NCBI GenBank assembly: GCA_037142835.1
Contig: JBAWZW010000001.1
Location: 4,592 to 68,591 of the forward strand
DNA length: 64,000 bases
Direction of reading: 5' to 3'
From: Verrucomicrobiota bacterium
GTDB lineage: Bacteria; Verrucomicrobiota; Verrucomicrobiia; Chthoniobacterales; Chthoniobacteraceae
The translations under genes were made by a program, and so were the position numbers. Under the pieces are notes generated by a model. The model saw only the letters and a list, made by a program, of their open reading frames with translations. It did no database searches and was not told the origin of the DNA. Positions 11,766 to 37,538 of this stretch are shown piece by piece; positions within the stretch are counted from its first letter, which is position 1, and every line of letters begins with the position of its first letter.

Positions 11766-13346
11766 ATGTCCAACGGTCCAACCAACAAAGAAGTCTACCA
11801 TCGTCTGCGTGCCCTACCTTGGGAGAAACTCTGGACTGAGGAGGTCCAAAGATTCACCCAAGCATCTCCACGCGAACGCTTTGAAAACGTGTCGGTTATT
11901 CGTGCCGTAGGCGTAGTCTTTCCCCAGTCTGGCCCCACAGAATTACGGGCGGATGTCCAACTCTGGCTCCGCGAACTCCTCCTAGATCCCGAGGAAAAAA
12001 TTCGCCGCTATGCCATCGCCGCTCTACCCAAGGTCGGAGCGACGGGAACAGACGAAGCAGAATTACTCAAACTTCTCCGCACGACAAAAAATCCTCGCGA
12101 AGAAAAATTTCTCGGCCAAGCCCTCGATAAAATTGGAGGTTCCGCCACCCTAGAAACCCTTGCCGCATCGGGAAAAGGCTCGCCCCAAACCATCCAAAAA
12201 ATTCAAGCCAGCCTCGCCCGAAGAGAAACTCCCAGCACGGTTCGTCTCGATCATCTCCTTCCCGAATCCGAAGCCCAGCGCATCCACCTCCGATGCCGAG
12301 CAGGCCTCGAAGGAATCCTCCGCGCTGAATTAGAAGAACAAGGTAAATTCCGCATCCTCGGTGGAGCGCGGGGACTGGTCGCGATTACCCCCCTCGTGCC
12401 GATCACCCTCGCAGATATTTTCGCTCTTCGATGCTTTGGCACTCTCGGAATCGTCCTGGGCCTCGTCCGAACTCAGCAGGATACCCAGTCCATTGAGTCT
12501 CTCGCCCAGATCATCTCCTCGCCCGCCACCACACGACTTCTCCTCGCTTTAACCGAGGGTTCCCTCCGCTACCGCCTCGATTTTATCGGAAAGGGACACC
12601 AACGGAGCGCCGTCCGCTTAGTCGCCAATCGGGCCTATGCCCTCAGCCAAGCAATTCTCAACGACCCACAAGAAGCCCCTTGGGCGATTGATGTTCACCA
12701 AAATAAATCAGGCGATTCCGTGGAATTGCGCCCGCGCACTTCTCCAGATCCGCGTCACCCCTATCGGCTTGGTGATGTTCCCGCAGCCTCCCACCCTCCA
12801 CTCGCGGCAGCGATGGCTCGCCTCGCTGGGGCGCAAGCACAGGAAAGGATTTGGGACCCGTTTTGTGGCTCAGGATTAGAACTAATCGAACGATCACTGC
12901 AAGGTGGGGTTGAATCGGTCTTTGGAACCGATCGCAACGCCCAGGCTATTGCCATCGCCGAACGCAACTTTGCCGCCGCCACCCTTCCCCAAATCAACGC
13001 CCACTTCATCTGCTCAGACTTTCGTGATTGGGAGAAAATCGCCGGGCTTACCCATCAAAGCATCTCCCTCATCGTGACCAATCCCCCCCTTGGCCGCCGC
13101 GTGCGAGTTCCTCATCTTCGCAGCCTCTTTCATGACCTCTTTTGCGTGGCCGCAGATGTCCTTCGCCCAGGTGGTCGAATGGTCTTAACCAATCCATTTC
13201 AAATGGATAGTCCCACAGATCTACTCCGCCTCCAGTCACGCCAAGTCGTCGACCTCGGTGGTTTTGATTGTCAACTTGAAGTCTACGAAAAAGCTTACCC
13301 TCAAACACCCGATAGCCAGAAACAATCAAACGCTCACCCTCGCTAG
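11766..13346 (+). CDS. HEAT-repeat + THUMP-like + class I SAM RNA methyltransferase
   Basis: DPEEKIRRYAIAAL HEAT-like unit, LRCRAGLEGIL THUMP-like start, WDPFCGSG (motif I) and TNPPLG (motif IV). Confidence 0.75.
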   Translation: MSNGPTNKEVYHRLRALPWEKLWTEEVQRFTQASPRERFENVSVIRAVGVVFPQSGPTELRADVQLWLRELLLDPEEKIRRYAIAALPKVGATGTDEAELLKLLRTTKNPREEKFLGQALDKIGGSATLETLAASGKGSPQTIQKIQASLARRETPSTVRLDHLLPESEAQRIHLRCRAGLEGILRAELEEQGKFRILGGARGLVAITPLVPITLADIFALRCFGTLGIVLGLVRTQQDTQSIESLAQIISSPATTRLLLALTEGSLRYRLDFIGKGHQRSAVRLVANRAYALSQAILNDPQEAPWAIDVHQNKSGDSVELRPRTSPDPRHPYRLGDVPAASHPPLAAAMARLAGAQAQERIWDPFCGSGLELIERSLQGGVESVFGTDRNAQAIAIAERNFAAATLPQINAHFICSDFRDWEKIAGLTHQSISLIVTNPPLGRRVRVPHLRSLFHDLFCVAADVLRPGGRMVLTNPFQMDSPTDLLRLQSRQVVDLGGFDCQLEVYEKAYPQTPDSQKQSNAHPR

Positions 13347-16300
13347 CCACCGAAGGGTTTCGTAGAAAAAGCCTGTCCAACAATCGCCAAAAGTTTTGTG
13401 GGCGTGTACGGCTTCGGCAGATAGTTTGTGCCCTCACGAAGATCCAGACCTCGCCCAGACACCTCCCCAGGATAGCCACTCATAAAGATCACCCGAAGAG
13501 TAGGTTTGGTGGCGAGAAGCTGATCCGCTAACTGCCCACCAGAAACGCTTTCTGGCATCACGACGTCGGTCAAAAGCAAATCCACATTTGCCGCGTGTTC
13601 GGGCCAAAGGATCAGAGCTTCAGCCCCACTCCCCGCCTCGATCACTTGATAACCAAACATCCTCAGCGCCTGGGCAGTGAGCTTCCGCAACGCCAACTCA
13701 TCTTCCACGAGCAAGATGGTCTCCCCAAAACCCGAGCGCTTGTCATTAGCCGCCACTGATGCCGGAGCCACCGAAGCGTCTAATTTTTGGGGAAAATAAG
13801 CATGAAAGGTCGTGCCGACTCCTAGTTGGGTTTCAACCTCAATCCATCCGTGATGTTGCTCAACCACTCCGTAGACCGTTGCCAAGCCTAATCCCGTGCC
13901 TTTACCGATATCTTTCGTCGTAAAAAAAGGCTCAAAAATTCGCTTCACATGCTCTGGCGCGATTCCGCTTCCGTTATCTTGAACGCTCAATCGAATAAAA
14001 TCTCCCATACGGCTAGGGCTTTGCACCGCTTCCGTCTCCAAAATTTTCACCGCCTTTAATGTGAGGGTAATCTCTCCCCCATTCGTCATCGCGTCGCGCG
14101 CATTGACCGCCAAATTGAGAAGCACTTGTTCCACCATTCCTCGATCCGCTTGGATCAGCATACTCTCAGGCAACAACCGCGTCTGAATCGTGACCGCTTC
14201 CGGAATCAGTCGGCGAAGCATTTTCACCATTCCGACCACCACTTCATTCAGATCGATAGACTGAAACCGCAGAGGTTGTTGTCGGCTAAAAGTCAGTAAT
14301 TGCCGGGTCAAATTGCTCGCACGTTCACTCGCCTTGGCAATCTCCTCAAGGAGATGCTGTTGCTGGGGACTGACTTGCCCAAGCTGGAGTAACTCGGTAT
14401 TCCCAAGAATCACCGTGAGCATATTATTAAAATCATGCGCTACCCCGCCCGCTAATTGCCCAAACGCCTCCATCTTTTGCGATTGCCGGAACTTTTCCTC
14501 CAGTTGATGGCGTTCGGTAATGTCTTCCGCCGTTCCAACGACTCGCACCACCTCTCCACTGCTATTCCGAACGGGAAACGCTCGGTCGTGGATCCAACGG
14601 ATTCCCCCGTCTGGGCGGATGATCCGGTAGACAATGTCGTAGTTTCCTTCAGCCTGAGATACCGACGATTGCTTGACCGCTTCCAGGTCCTCGGGATGAA
14701 TCGCCTCCAACCAAGATTGCGGCGAAGCATAGAGACTGGCACAGGTTCGCCCCCAGATTATTTCAAAAGCAGGACTGACATATACCATCTGCTCCTTCGC
14801 CGAATCCGTCACCCAAAAGACTTCCCGAATGTTTTCTGCCAGTTCCCGGAAACGCTCCTCGCTCTCTCTTAAGACTTTCTCCGCAGCCTTGGACTCGGTG
14901 ATATCCCGCATGAATGCGCTAAAGAAAATTTCCCCTCCCGTCTGAACCGGAGTGATGGCCAACTCCACGGGAAACTCCTCCCCACTTTTTCGTAAAGCCG
15001 ATAACTCGAGGCGCTTATTCAAAACCGGTCCGATCCCCGTTGATAAGTAACGTTTCATCCCCTCCGCGTGCCCTCGCCGATACTGCTCTGGAATGATCAA
15101 GTCGGCGAGAGACCGCCCACAGGCCTCACTTTTTTTCCACCCAAAGATGGTCTCCGCTTGCAAATTCCAATTCGTAATCTGACCTCTAATATCCATCCCG
15201 ATCACCGCGTCCAAAGCAGTATCCACGACCGCTTGGTACCGCACGTCGCTCTCGCGCAAAGCACGCTCAGTCATCTTCCGATCGGTAATATCTCGGGTCA
15301 CTCCCACATAGAAAATAATCTGACCGTTTTCATCGTGGAGCAGCGACACACTCAGGTCATTCCAAAAACTTTGCCCGTTCTTTCGATAGTTCAGAATCTC
15401 TCCTGCAAATGGAACCCTAGTTCGAAAAGAATTCCGGAGCGCTTCAATCGTTTCTTGATCGGTCAACGGCCCCTGAAGGAACGCACAGTTGCGCCCCAAA
15501 ACTTCCGCCTCGTCGTAGCCGGTCATCGTGCAAAATGCCGGATTCACCGAGACGATCAGACGATCCGCATTGCAAACTAATACCCCTTGCGAAATCGATC
15601 GCAAAGCCAAGTCGTTCAAGCGCATCGCGGATTCATTTTTCCGCCGTTCGGTAAGATCCGTATTCGTCCCCACCACTCGCACCGCTCGCTTTTGATGATC
15701 CCGAACAATCCAACCCCGTGAGAAAATCGGCACATAGTGACCAGCCCGATGGCGGAGCCGATGCTCAAATTCGTAGCAATTAAGATCGCTAGCTAAAAAC
15801 CCCTTCATTAAGCGACTCACCCGCTCGCGATCATCGGGATGGGTCAGTTCTGACCAAAGATCGGCGGTAACTGTCAGTTGGCCAGGTGCATAGCCGAGCA
15901 TCGAAAACCAGAAGTCCGAATAAAAAACCTCATTTTTAATCAAATCACGATCCCAGACCCCATCCTGAGATGCTTGGATCACCAAATTCAAACGATCCTC
16001 AGACTTTTTTAAACTCATCTCCGCCAGATGCTTGAACTGAGCCATCTCAATGACCGTCTGAAGCTCGCGACCACTAAATGGCTTGAGAACATAGCCATAG
16101 GGCGTGGCTAGCTTGGCACGCGCCAAGGTGTCGGCCTCAGCAAAAGCCGTCAGAAAAACCACCGGCAAACCAAAGCGATTGCGGATTTCCGTAGCGGCCT
16201 CAATCCCATCCATGGATCCCGCTAATTGAATATCCATCAAAATCATGTCGGGTTGCAGTTCTTCCGCGAGAGCGATGGCTTGATCTCCCCGAGTGGCGTG

Positions 16301-16408
16301 ACCCACAGGTAAATATCCGAGCTCAATCAACTGCTGTTGAATATCTCGAGCGACAATCACTTCATCCTCAACGACGAGAATTTTCGGCTTGGAAAGCGAA
16401 GATGGCAT
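13343..16408 (-). CDS. Hybrid sensor kinase REC-PAS-PAS(LOV-like)-PAS(heme-like)-PAS-HisKA-HATPase-REC
   Basis: KILVVEDE...MDIQL (REC1), four PAS/PAC units, [10 protein letters not shown] (H-box), [24 protein letters not shown] and LLTDVVMP (REC2). Confidence 0.93.
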
Positions 16409-16480
16409 AGTCAGCAATTTAAAAAGCTGCGGGAGATTGGCAAGACGCTAAGCGATCGGCAGAAAAAGAAGTTGCCACGC

Positions 16481-19045
16481 TCAATTCTCAATCGGCAAGA
16501 GGGACGTCTCCACTGAAAAAGTCAGGCTAAAAGCAGCTCCCGGACCGGGCTCGATGACCGCCGTCCCACCGAGCTGAAGGGCGAGATCGGAGACCAGTTG
16601 ATGTCCCAATGAATGCCCGCGCTTTTCATCAAAGTCGGCGGGCAGCCCGATCCCGTTGTCCCTAACTCCAATCTGGAACTCTTGGGGATTCTTCCCTTTC
16701 TGCAGGGTGATCCGAACCTCACCTGGCCGATCATTGGGAAAGCCGTGCTTCAGGCAATTCGAGAGCAACTCGTTCATAAATAGCCCGCAGGAAATCGCCT
16801 GATCCATCGGGGCATCAACCGCACACACCTCAAGATGCAATGTCACTCTGCTGGACGAATCCACCAGGCTCCGAAAGGACTCGGTCGCAAGTTTTTTTAA
16901 ATAGTCACCCAAATCCACTTTGGCAAAAGTTCCAGAGCGATATAGCAATTCATGCAAAAGAGACATCGAACGAATCCTTCCCTGCATATCCTGCAAGGCA
17001 ACTTTGGTCTCCAAATTGACACAGCGTCCCGTTTCAAGCCGAAGCAAACTGTAGATGATCTGCAGGTTATTTTTTACCCGATGATGCACCTCTTTGAGAA
17101 GGGCGACCTTGTCCCGTACCGAAGCTTGAAGCTCAAGCTCAGCACGAAGACGACCAGCGAGTTCCTCAGTGAGCTGCTTGTTCGTCCCCGTCAAACTTTG
17201 TCGCGATTGATACAGTCCTTCCCTCGCTCCAGCGAGCCCCTCAGCCGCCCGACCAACCTCCGCTTGCAACCGGTTGAAATTGATCGCCATATCCCCAACT
17301 TCGTCCCTCGAATAAACCTTCACTGGCACGGTATCAAACTCTGCGTGCGCACCATCAAGATCACCCGCCGCCAAGGCCTGCATCGCTTTGGTAAAATCTT
17401 TCAAAGTGCCCGCAACCAGAAGATTCGCCGCCTTCGAAACCTCAACCGCGGAGTGAGCAATCATCCCCGGAAGAATTAACCCCACCGCAATCGTCAAAAG
17501 CGCAACAACCACAAAAATGTCCTGAAGGAGAGAAATCAACGCGCTGTTTTCGGTAGGAACATTGCCCACCGCGATCAGATAACCGCCAGCGTCGAGCACC
17601 AGAACCAAAAGCATCGCCCCCGTGAGCTTCAGGTGGAGGGTTCGGGCGATTCCCGGCAACCCCGCTTTCCTCCGATCCATAAACTTCCGCCAAGCGTAAA
17701 GCGCTGCCCCAGAGTACGCAAAAGAGATGCCAATCAGCACCGTCGTTAAACCAAACTGCTCGAAGCCGAGGATGGCCGTCAAACCCCACGCACCCGCCGC
17801 AAGCAGTCCCAGCCAGATCGTCCCCCGCGGCGCACGATAAGGGCGCGCAAGGGTGGGTTCGTTGCGGCGCAGGAGCCAGACCGCCACGCTCGGAAGGGCG
17901 ATCCCGATTAGGTAGGTCAGATTGGCTGCGGCGATCAGCCAGATGGGATTGCCAATCCACAAAAAGACGATTGCCATCACCCCAGTGGAGACGGTGGCGA
18001 CCCACGGGGCATCCGTCTTCGACCGCTTCGCCAGCGACTCGGGAAGTAACCCATCCTCAGCAAGCTGCGCAAGGGTTCTCGCCGCTCCAGCCAAGGGCGC
18101 CAAACAACCGTGGAGCATGTTAAAGATCATGAACCACGCCGCCGCCGCCTTCGCCGAAGCCCCAAAAAGCGGAGCGAAAGTGGGCCCAAGGACGTCGGCA
18201 AGATCTTTGCCAAGTTCCTCAGGTCCAAGTGCACCCAGCCAAATAATCGGCAGAATGATAAAATAGAGCGAAGCCAGACCAGCACTCGCAAAAACCGCGC
18301 GCGGAACATTCCGGTTGGGATCGATGGTTTCACCAACATGCGAAGTGGCCTGCTCAAAGGCGGGTGCCGCGAAGCCAATCAAATAGAGCCCAGCCATCAC
18401 GCTGGTGACTTGGCCAAACCAACCAGGAAAGGGCACGGTCAAATGAAAGCTAAAGGCCTGATGCCAATCCACCAAACCATTGGTCATCGGAAGAATCGCC
18501 GAGCAAAAAGCCAGCGCAGCCGCCGCCGTCGCCACGGGCATCGCAAGGCGCATCACCCATTTGACCCCGCATAAATTAACCGCCGCAAAAAGAATCACGA
18601 TCCCCGAAGCCAACACCTTCGGTGCGTAATCAGGCATGACTGGCAGGCACCAGTTAATCAACGCCGTCGAGGCCAGAGTCGCAGTCAACCCACACGTTGG
18701 CACCCATCCCCACCAATAACAAACCCCCGTCAGGTTCGCCAAAACTGGACTGTAAGGACGAAAAGCCTCCGCACATGTCGCGGCAATTCCCCCAACCCGG
18801 TTGGGATACATCAAAATCAGTTCCGTCCATCCTGGCGTCGCCGCCCAACTCAAAAGCAACCCAATCGCCAAGAGGACCACCGCAGCACTCCCTTGTCCCG
18901 GAATCGCCCCTTGCCCGATAAAAAGTGCCCCGATCAGAAAGAGACTTTGATTGATTCCCCCCATCGCCACCGCCGTGGTTCCAAACCACCCAATTGTTCG
19001 AGGATGAAGCAACGATGGGGCGGTGGAGGCGGAAGATGATTGCAT
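16481..19045 (-). CDS. APC-family amino-acid permease fused to HAMP + HisKA_2 + HATPase_c kinase
   Basis: About 450 aa of polytopic APC-like sequence (AFEQATSHVGETIDPNRNVPRA, RTLAQLAEDGLLP, RPYRAP), two more TMs, HAMP (DEVGDMAINFNRL), EVHHRVKNNLQII, NELLSNCLKHG, DNGIGLP and SLG. One uninterrupted ORF. Confidence 0.9.
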   Translation of the reverse strand: MQSSSASTAPSLLHPRTIGWFGTTAVAMGGINQSLFLIGALFIGQGAIPGQGSAAVVLLAIGLLLSWAATPGWTELILMYPNRVGGIAATCAEAFRPYSPVLANLTGVCYWWGWVPTCGLTATLASTALINWCLPVMPDYAPKVLASGIVILFAAVNLCGVKWVMRLAMPVATAAAALAFCSAILPMTNGLVDWHQAFSFHLTVPFPGWFGQVTSVMAGLYLIGFAAPAFEQATSHVGETIDPNRNVPRAVFASAGLASLYFIILPIIWLGALGPEELGKDLADVLGPTFAPLFGASAKAAAAWFMIFNMLHGCLAPLAGAARTLAQLAEDGLLPESLAKRSKTDAPWVATVSTGVMAIVFLWIGNPIWLIAAANLTYLIGIALPSVAVWLLRRNEPTLARPYRAPRGTIWLGLLAAGAWGLTAILGFEQFGLTTVLIGISFAYSGAALYAWRKFMDRRKAGLPGIARTLHLKLTGAMLLVLVLDAGGYLIAVGNVPTENSALISLLQDIFVVVALLTIAVGLILPGMIAHSAVEVSKAANLLVAGTLKDFTKAMQALAAGDLDGAHAEFDTVPVKVYSRDEVGDMAINFNRLQAEVGRAAEGLAGAREGLYQSRQSLTGTNKQLTEELAGRLRAELELQASVRDKVALLKEVHHRVKNNLQIIYSLLRLETGRCVNLETKVALQDMQGRIRSMSLLHELLYRSGTFAKVDLGDYLKKLATESFRSLVDSSSRVTLHLEVCAVDAPMDQAISCGLFMNELLSNCLKHGFPNDRPGEVRITLQKGKNPQEFQIGVRDNGIGLPADFDEKRGHSLGHQLVSDLALQLGGTAVIEPGPGAAFSLTFSVETSLLPIEN

Positions 19046-36485: not shown

Positions 36486-37538
36486 TTAAGTGAAGGGCTT
36501 TTTGCGGTATTGATCTGGGCAGAGCGAGCGAAGAGCCACGTTAGAAAATGCCACCGGGACTGCCAAGGCAAGAGCACGATGGACGGTTGAACGGGGAACT
36601 TTCAACTTCTCATTCAAAGTCAACGGAGAGGTTTTCGCCATCAGCTTGAGGGTTTGCACACCGAGATACCAAGGGAGAAAGCATCCCGCTCGGATGCGGG
36701 GGGAGCGAAGCGCAGAGATATAGCGAAAACCATCTTCCAAATAAAGACTGGCCCGAGCATGCCAAAGGTCGAACACAGGCTGGGCCTTTGTCGGATCGTG
36801 AAGCAAAGGCGCAGGAGAAGTTCCTCCGGCCCGGAGCTCGTTCTCGGGAAGATAGCAACGACCCGCGTGCAGGTCCGCAGGGATATCCCGGAGAATGTTC
36901 ACAAGCTGCAGGCCTTTGCCAAAATTCACCCCTAATCGGCGTAAATCCGCTAACCCTAGCTCAGAACAATTTGGTAAGTGATGCAAACAGAGTCGCGTCC
37001 AAAATTCACCGACCGATCCCGCCACAAGATAAGCATACTCTTCGACTTCCGCGGCACTTTGCAGCGCGATGATCGGCCCATCCTCACCAAATCGGGTCAG
37101 ATCCAGAGTCTGGCCTCGAATGATTTTTTCCATCACCCCAAGGATTTCCCCACGATCCTTCTGGCCCACGCTGGCCAACCAACTTAAGCAATCGCCAAGA
37201 CAGGCGATCAGCGTGCACTCGCCATCGTGCGGCGAACTAATTTCTTGCCGTAATTCCTCTAAACCGGCCACGTCGCCAGTGCGAATCATTTGCCAGAGCG
37301 CACCAAGATGGCGCAGTCGGGTCGCCACAGGAATGGTGGTACTATCCGCGATCGTATCACTCGCCCGCGCAAGCAGATAAGCGAGTCCGATCGGACTCCT
37401 CAGAGGCGCAGGAAGGATGCGGATGCTCAGATAAAAAGAGCGAGAAACACTCGCCAATAAAGGCCCTCCGAGGTCTGTAGTATTGATTCGCACTGAATCC
37501 ATGGGGATCCATATTGACCACCCTGAGGAGAAAATCAA
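36486..37538 (-). CDS. Squalene/phytoene synthase family protein
   Basis: VSRSF, YLLARASDTIAD, YLVAGSVGEF and GKGLQLVNILRD. The start may be ATG 37502. Confidence 0.88.
   Translation of the reverse strand: MIFSSGWSIWIPMDSVRINTTDLGGPLLASVSRSFYLSIRILPAPLRSPIGLAYLLARASDTIADSTTIPVATRLRHLGALWQMIRTGDVAGLEELRQEISSPHDGECTLIACLGDCLSWLASVGQKDRGEILGVMEKIIRGQTLDLTRFGEDGPIIALQSAAEVEEYAYLVAGSVGEFWTRLCLHHLPNCSELGLADLRRLGVNFGKGLQLVNILRDIPADLHAGRCYLPENELRAGGTSPAPLLHDPTKAQPVFDLWHARASLYLEDGFRYISALRSPRIRAGCFLPWYLGVQTLKLMAKTSPLTLNEKLKVPRSTVHRALALAVPVAFSNVALRSLCPDQYRKKPFT

Follow-up and report, generated by a model that had tools for sequence, protein, structure and literature searches.

A LOV-type PAS domain with threonine at the active-site glutamine position in a predicted hybrid histidine kinase from Verrucomicrobiota

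The kinase gene and its LOV-type domain

The window analysed here is a 64,000-nucleotide stretch of contig JBAWZW010000001.1 from a Verrucomicrobiota bacterium, whose genome is a 3.68-Mb metagenome-assembled genome (MAG) that is 95.7% complete. An open reading frame (ORF) on its minus strand, at 13343..16417, is predicted from the ORF list, Pfam and the starts of orthologues to encode a hybrid sensor histidine kinase with the domain order REC-PAS-LOV-PAS(FixL-like)-PAS-HisKA-HATPase-REC. The second of its four PAS domains, a LOV-type core spanning residues 270–380 (15278..15610, minus strand), is the subject of this study. Translation from the listed start, the TTG at 16417, yields 1024 amino acids, but the orthologues all begin at the ATG at 16408, three codons downstream, which is therefore likely the true start and would give a protein of 1021 amino acids. 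Residue numbers throughout follow the 1024-residue reading, and all codons and domains of the kinase given below lie on the minus strand.

The original prediction, made from the DNA letters, had proposed a LOV-like domain at 15280-15610, with the cysteine codon at 15485-15487, an alanine in place of the arginine that follows the cysteine and a threonine in place of the terminal glutamine. Each of these features was recovered. Residues ~270–380 map to 15278-15610, and the peptides quoted in the prediction are found in the translation, which contains the motif GRNC(311)A(312)FLQ, followed by R328, N343 and N353 and ending in YVGVT(374)RDIT. When the 125-residue domain was compared with the PDB using phmmer, the best match was the LOV domain of Chloroflexus aggregans (the parent of CagFbFP, 6rhg; E 7.8e-30, 51% identity), and the next were Brucella LOV-HK, PpSB1/2, YtvA, YF1, aureochromes and phototropins. 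Pfam PAS_9 covers residues 277–379. The CagFbFP side of the alignment reads NYRKDGQPFWN in the asparagine region, and VGVTRDI lies opposite VGVQTDV, with Thr374 aligned column-for-column with Gln148 of CagFbFP (HMMER).

Cys311, at the adduct-forming position, aligns with the cysteine of GRNCRFLQ in CagFbFP and is encoded by TGT (ACA on the plus strand) at exactly 15485..15487. Immediately after it, Ala312 (15482..15484) replaces the first of the arginines that bind the phosphate of flavin mononucleotide (FMN). Gln315, the glutamine of FLQ (15473..15475), is kept as a flavin contact, as are the two asparagines that contact the flavin ring, Asn343 (15389..15391) and Asn353 (15359..15361), which are the equivalents of YtvA Asn94 and Asn104. 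Also kept is Arg328 (15434..15436), located in EALRNSF, which we take from LOV structures to be the second phosphate contact. The position of the active-site glutamine in the last β-strand is occupied by Thr374, encoded by ACC at 15296..15298, and the residue right after it is Arg375 (15293..15295).

An AlphaFold model of residues 255–396 (142 residues, from a 31-sequence alignment) has a mean predicted local distance difference test score of 86 and consists of a PAS core with a helix on each side. In a Foldseek search of the PDB, every one of the model's best 50 matches is a LOV domain, with template modelling (TM) scores of up to 0.89. Its TM score is 0.88 against the Meiothermus LOV domain with both helices (MrLOVe), it superposes on CagFbFP with a root-mean-square deviation of 0.8 Å, and its fold fits LOV constructs that carry flanking helices (9vf7, 4gcz and 7a6p). 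The predicted N-terminal flanking helix, A'α, comprises residues 257–273 (15599..15649; helix 3–19 of the construct), and on the other side the DIT motif and a predicted Jα-like linker helix together comprise residues 378–395 (15233..15286; helix 124–141) and run into the next PAS domain. This predicted arrangement of A'α, core and Jα, with DIT leading into a coiled coil, is shared with Brucella LOV-HK, the YtvA-derived YF1, the PpSB-based kinases and Meiothermus MrLOV. In those proteins, however, the LOV domain adjoins the kinase or is one PAS domain away from it and always has the glutamine, whereas here two PAS domains lie between and receivers are found at both ends.

The similarity to LOV domains is far beyond chance, and we assign the domain, on its sequence and modelled fold, as a genuine LOV-family PAS. 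The fold, the adduct cysteine in its motif (G308, N310, C311, F313, L314 and Q315), the asparagine pair and the second phosphate arginine are all present. Two hallmarks are missing: the arginine directly after the cysteine (YtvA R63), which is Ala312, and the active-site glutamine (YtvA Q123, AsLOV2 Q513), which is Thr374. The sequence and fold tests thus support the earlier suggestion of a variant flavin sensor within the LOV family, placed mid-protein, for which we infer flavin binding and a photocycle.

LOV domains of this kind form a published class. Dietler et al. 2022 selected LOV-deltaQ proteins by the presence of at least eight of nine YtvA residues (G59, N61, C62, R63, F64, L65, Q66, N94 and N104) and the absence of Gln123, and reported ~350 natural members whose replacements include Leu, Ile, Ser, Thr, His and Cys (PMC9098866). 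The window domain retains eight of the nine (G308, N310, C311, F313, L314, Q315, N343 and N353) and lacks only the R63 equivalent; because the glutamine is also absent, being Thr here, its sequence places it within the LOV-deltaQ definition. The active-site glutamine is dispensable for LOV function: the light response of the YF1 kinase survives every substitution at this site except Pro, His, Trp, Tyr and Arg, and a natural Met-type LOV-deltaQ diguanylate cyclase is regulated by blue light (PMC9098866), in agreement with the statement in the original prediction that natural LOV receptors without the glutamine still signal. Among the members, the Mesorhizobium loti LOV-deltaQ-GGDEF-EAL protein WP_140774521.1 falls under the same sequence definition with Met at the glutamine site. 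By comparison, the effector of the window protein is a multi-PAS hybrid histidine kinase and not GGDEF-EAL, its glutamine is replaced by Thr and not by Met, and it also lacks the arginine after the cysteine.

The glutamine-less class, Thr included, has therefore already been published; the domain type is known and common, and the find is real but fairly ordinary. Mildly new are the combination of Thr and Ala, apparently within a multi-PAS hybrid kinase that also bears a putative heme PAS, the fact that it stands alone among the Verrucomicrobiota sampled, and a natural pair of Cys/Arg and Phe/Glu alleles, described below.

Relatives and variation at the glutamine site

The closest-relative set comprised 124 domains scoring at least 80 bits against the window domain, pooled from word-indexed and exhaustive representative searches. 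The cysteine is present in 116 of them, and where it is present the asparagine pair is found in 109 of the 116 and Q315 in 114. Within the group of 89 relatives without the glutamine, the equivalents of Gln315, Asn343 and Asn353 occur in 87, 88 and 84, respectively. The glutamine site itself is variable (T 51, Q 27, I 13, S 7, M 6 and others in the whole set), as is the site after the cysteine (R 50, K 19, A 15, S 10, N 8 and others). Conservation of flavin photochemistry would be expected to leave just such a pattern, with the cysteine, the asparagine pair and Q315 retained while the glutamine site varies.

Thr is over-counted in this set, since the word-indexed search favours words shared across GVTRD. 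We therefore rejected Thr as the commonest residue at the glutamine site; in less biased samples it is one of many replacements. The best 150 matches of the exhaustive search were mostly giant multi-PAS proteins ranked by summed scores, and single domains were re-scored; among the matches listed, domains with the cysteine and the asparagine pair have Q 34, L 14, M 3 and A 2 at this site, and none has Thr. Six-frame searching of 401 Verrucomicrobiota species genomes identified ~13 with a Cys-bearing LOV-like domain, nine with Gln and four with L, L, S or I, and in this sample the Thr type was found in the window's own genome only. In 401 species genomes from the order of an Undibacterium relative, 12 Cys-bearing domains were found at E 1e-25, with Q 4, S 2, L 2, A 1, T 1, V 1 and M 1. 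Several residues are ordinary at this site, and Thr is one of them.

A tree of the relatives and five canonical LOV domains was calculated over 117 columns, with CagFbFP taken from the PDB alignment; small errors are possible in the sequences used for the other four, AsLOV2, YtvA, EL222 and PpSB1. The canonical LOV domains fall within a 19-row clade in which every member has Gln (support of 98 in the Shimodaira–Hasegawa-like approximate likelihood ratio test, SH-aLRT). The window domain lies in a separate clade of 97 rows, with moderate support (SH-aLRT 93), where only 6 have Gln at the glutamine site, against T 55, I 13, S 7, M 6, A 4, L 3 and V 2, and the site after the cysteine has R 37, K 15, A 11, S 8 and others. 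The window domain is thus a member of a large clade, mostly of proteobacterial proteins, that conserves the cysteine and the ring contacts while the glutamine site and the arginine after the cysteine are freely variable. Neither the change from Gln to Thr nor that from Arg to Ala is a peculiarity of this gene, as both sites vary across this large Cys-bearing LOV-like clade. The best solved relative, Cagg_3753 of Chloroflexus aggregans (the parent of CagFbFP, 6rhg), likewise has its LOV domain inside a multi-sensor hybrid kinase, but it carries the canonical GRNCRFLQ and GVQTD and belongs to the all-Gln clade, unlike the window domain in its Gln-poor clade.

The conservation of the cysteine bears on a different role for the domain, in which it would act in the dark as a flavin redox sensor resembling those of NifL and MmoS, responding to flavin reduction and oxidation through N5 protonation, with any light reactivity being incidental. 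Such a role would be compatible with light sensing, and we consider it unlikely as the main function. In its favour, flavin reduction and adduct formation both protonate N5, LOV receptors have been argued to descend from redox-active flavoproteins (PMC9098866), the FixL-like heme PAS in the same kinase makes an O2 or redox theme plausible, and the glutamine that tunes the light response is absent. However, the redox flavin PAS domains known so far lack a conserved cysteine, whereas here it is near-invariant across the clade, as LOV photochemistry predicts. In addition, the clade profile scores 144 bits on CagFbFP as against 76 bits on PAS-A of MmoS, which binds flavin adenine dinucleotide (FAD). 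MmoS PAS-A and NifL PAS1 do share the PAS fold and a similar C-terminal RDIT with the window domain, but they lack the cysteine and the asparagine pair and score about half as well as LOV domains against the clade profile; the window domain, having both features, does not look like an FAD-binding redox PAS. An assignment to the NifL/MmoS type was rejected, as MmoS ranked third against the clade profile only by summing two PAS domains, with half the LOV score per domain.

The Gln-poor relatives share features of their own. The residue after the glutamine site, Arg375 in the window domain, is Arg in all 88 of 88 relatives without Gln, as against 11 of 27 with Gln, and in 81 of the 89 relatives without Gln a glutamine (Q277, in SQG) precedes the first strand. 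The invariant arginine and the SQG motif may be clade-specific relay or interface residues.

The nearest relatives that are not orthologues, at ~50–56% identity, are mostly proteins of Burkholderiales, Rhodocyclales and Methylococcales. The sequences hint that the LOV domain, or the whole gene, was acquired from Proteobacteria.

Proposed light input and the two allele lineages

The remainder of the protein provides the context in which the LOV domain would act. The N-terminal receiver (residues 13–123, 16049..16381; Pfam Response_reg) has Asp62, Thr90 and Lys112 and is followed by PAS1, of the PAS_3 type (~residues 140–255, 15653..16000). Downstream of the LOV domain, PAS3 (residues 393–506, 14900..15241) resembles the FixL heme domains in the PDB (E 4e-18), with their proximal histidine aligned with His450 (codon 15068-15070), and is a putative heme PAS; PAS4 (residues 545–630, 14528..14785) is again a PAS_3 domain. 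The kinase core (13784..14458) consists of HisKA (residues 654–714, with His661) and HATPase_c (residues 759–878, with the N, G1 and G2 boxes), and the C-terminal receiver (13373..13723) has Asp951, Ser980 and Lys1002. With its phospho-acceptor aspartates (D62 and D951), its His661 and all of the N, G1 and G2 boxes in place, the protein is apparently a functional, cytoplasmic hybrid histidine kinase. It may combine light and O2 inputs, O2 sensing being possible because PAS3 resembles the FixL heme PAS with its proximal histidine aligned.

We think it probable, by homology, that the LOV domain is a LOV-deltaQ flavin module delivering a blue-light input, and possibly also a redox input, to this REC-PAS-LOV-hemePAS-PAS-kinase-REC hybrid kinase. 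The flavin ring would be held by Asn343, Asn353 and Gln315, and the phosphate by Arg328 alone, because the other arginine is Ala312. Blue light would then drive formation of a thioadduct between Cys311 and flavin C4a together with protonation of N5. Without the glutamine, the change at N5 could reach the β-sheet via water and perhaps Thr374, as has been proposed for other LOV receptors lacking this residue (PMC9098866). The signal would pass to the A'α and DIT-Jα helices and along the coiled-coil spine, through the FixL-like heme PAS and the fourth PAS domain, to the dimerization and histidine phosphotransfer (DHp) and catalytic ATP-binding (CA) core, and there change both autophosphorylation and phosphotransfer to the C-terminal receiver. 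Since flavin reduction protonates N5 too, the domain may respond to redox state in addition to light.

Several observations weigh against a light-driven role. Ala312 removes one of the two conserved salt bridges to the FMN phosphate, and flavin binding could be weakened or changed as a result. LOV variants without the glutamine usually signal at reduced amplitude (PMC9098866), and we found no chromophore or photocycle data in the literature for any Thr-type member. The orthologues also bear on this role. Full-length orthologues with 89–95% identity are present in several independent Verrucomicrobiales/Akkermansiaceae MAG assemblies, and all have Thr374. Among the 25 with a readable LOV segment, 12 have NCAFLQ and Arg328, the same as the window, and the other 13 have [S/D]FGFL[Q/H] and Glu328, so that the cysteine is replaced by Phe and Asn310 by Ser or Asp. 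This split was seen in the orthologue P0007 (L081:3496-6561), which is of the Cys-less type, and the cluster members P0266-P0279, the region concerned being equivalent to 15434-15490 of the window. In the Cys-less lineage both phosphate-binding positions are non-basic, yet the gene of 1021 amino acids is otherwise intact. A compensated frameshift as the origin of its GRSFGFLH sequence was considered and rejected, as the differences are separate non-synonymous point changes.

From their sequences, the Phe311/Glu328 genes look like natural light-blind alleles. Because 13 of the 25 orthologues keep the gene intact without the cysteine, light input appears to be dispensable for the kinase in close relatives. 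Since Cys311 and Arg328 are lost together in the sister lineage, their pairing suggests that, where kept, they serve one function, namely holding and reacting with the flavin.

The same alleles are the main argument for a second alternative, that what is left is a decaying or cofactor-less relic of a LOV domain, which has lost useful flavin binding and is kept in the kinase's coiled-coil spine only as a PAS module with a structural or relay role. The sister lineage carries N310S/D, C311F, A312G, R328E and sometimes Q315H in an intact protein, showing that the module can persist without LOV chemistry, and the window domain itself has Ala for one phosphate-binding arginine and Thr for the glutamine. 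Against this, Cys311, Q315, R328, N343 and N353 are all kept in the window's lineage across several independent assemblies, the same pocket residues are conserved over the wider clade, and many relatives whose pocket is otherwise conserved also have Ala or Thr at these sites. We regard this explanation as unlikely for the window domain. Purifying selection counts in favour of the flavin-sensor reading: pairwise ratios of non-synonymous to synonymous substitution (dN/dS) for the LOV segment are 0.25–0.45, like those of the other domains, indicating general purifying selection only, in which the LOV domain is not singled out.

The retained pocket is equally relevant to the idea that it has been repurposed for some other small ligand, with the cysteine as a sensor of the thiol or oxidant type. 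All that favours it is that PAS pockets are versatile in general and that the cysteine is near-invariant. The LOV residues that contact the ring are kept without exception, and the sequence gives no sign of a different ligand, making it very improbable.

A more speculative view, to which we give little credence, takes the Gln-poor, Cys-keeping clade, with its invariant arginine and its SQG, to be a functionally distinct LOV branch. Its relay from N5 to the surface of the sheet might differ, or its flavin might be anchored in another way and be, for instance, riboflavin or FAD. On this view the two allele lineages of this verrucomicrobial genus (Cys311/Arg328 and Phe311/Glu328) may be a natural polymorphism of light-sensing and light-blind forms of one kinase. 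Riboflavin or FAD is conceivable in this clade because the phosphate-binding arginines are relaxed.

As a LOV domain of the Thr type that lacks the first arginine and stands beside a FixL-like heme PAS, the window domain could serve as a test case for a glutamine-free LOV relay and for the integration of light and oxygen in one kinase, with the sister alleles that have Phe for Cys as a ready-made natural control. The overall picture of LOV signalling is unchanged, because LOV receptors without the glutamine are published and, across a large clade, the site is free to vary.

Genomic surroundings

Neither a second LOV-like domain nor a BLUF domain was found when the genome was searched for them, and near the LOV kinase there is no histidine phosphotransfer (Hpt) protein or output regulator. 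The genome carries two photolyase-family genes, which is consistent with exposure to some light.

Directly upstream of the LOV kinase, on the same strand, lies a gene for a kinase with an APC-permease-HAMP-HisKA_2 arrangement and no receiver (16481-19045, minus strand; Pfam). Its fate differs among three orthologous loci: it is retained in L081 (L081:859-3423), it is a remnant with an internal deletion in L082 (L082:2151-2770, residues 36–669 missing), and it is absent within 6 kb upstream in L001. The pairing of the upstream kinase with the LOV kinase is therefore not obligatory.

Approximately 21 kb from the LOV kinase, the window also contains a gene of the squalene/phytoene-synthase family (SQS_PSY, 157 bits) at 36486-37538 on the minus strand.

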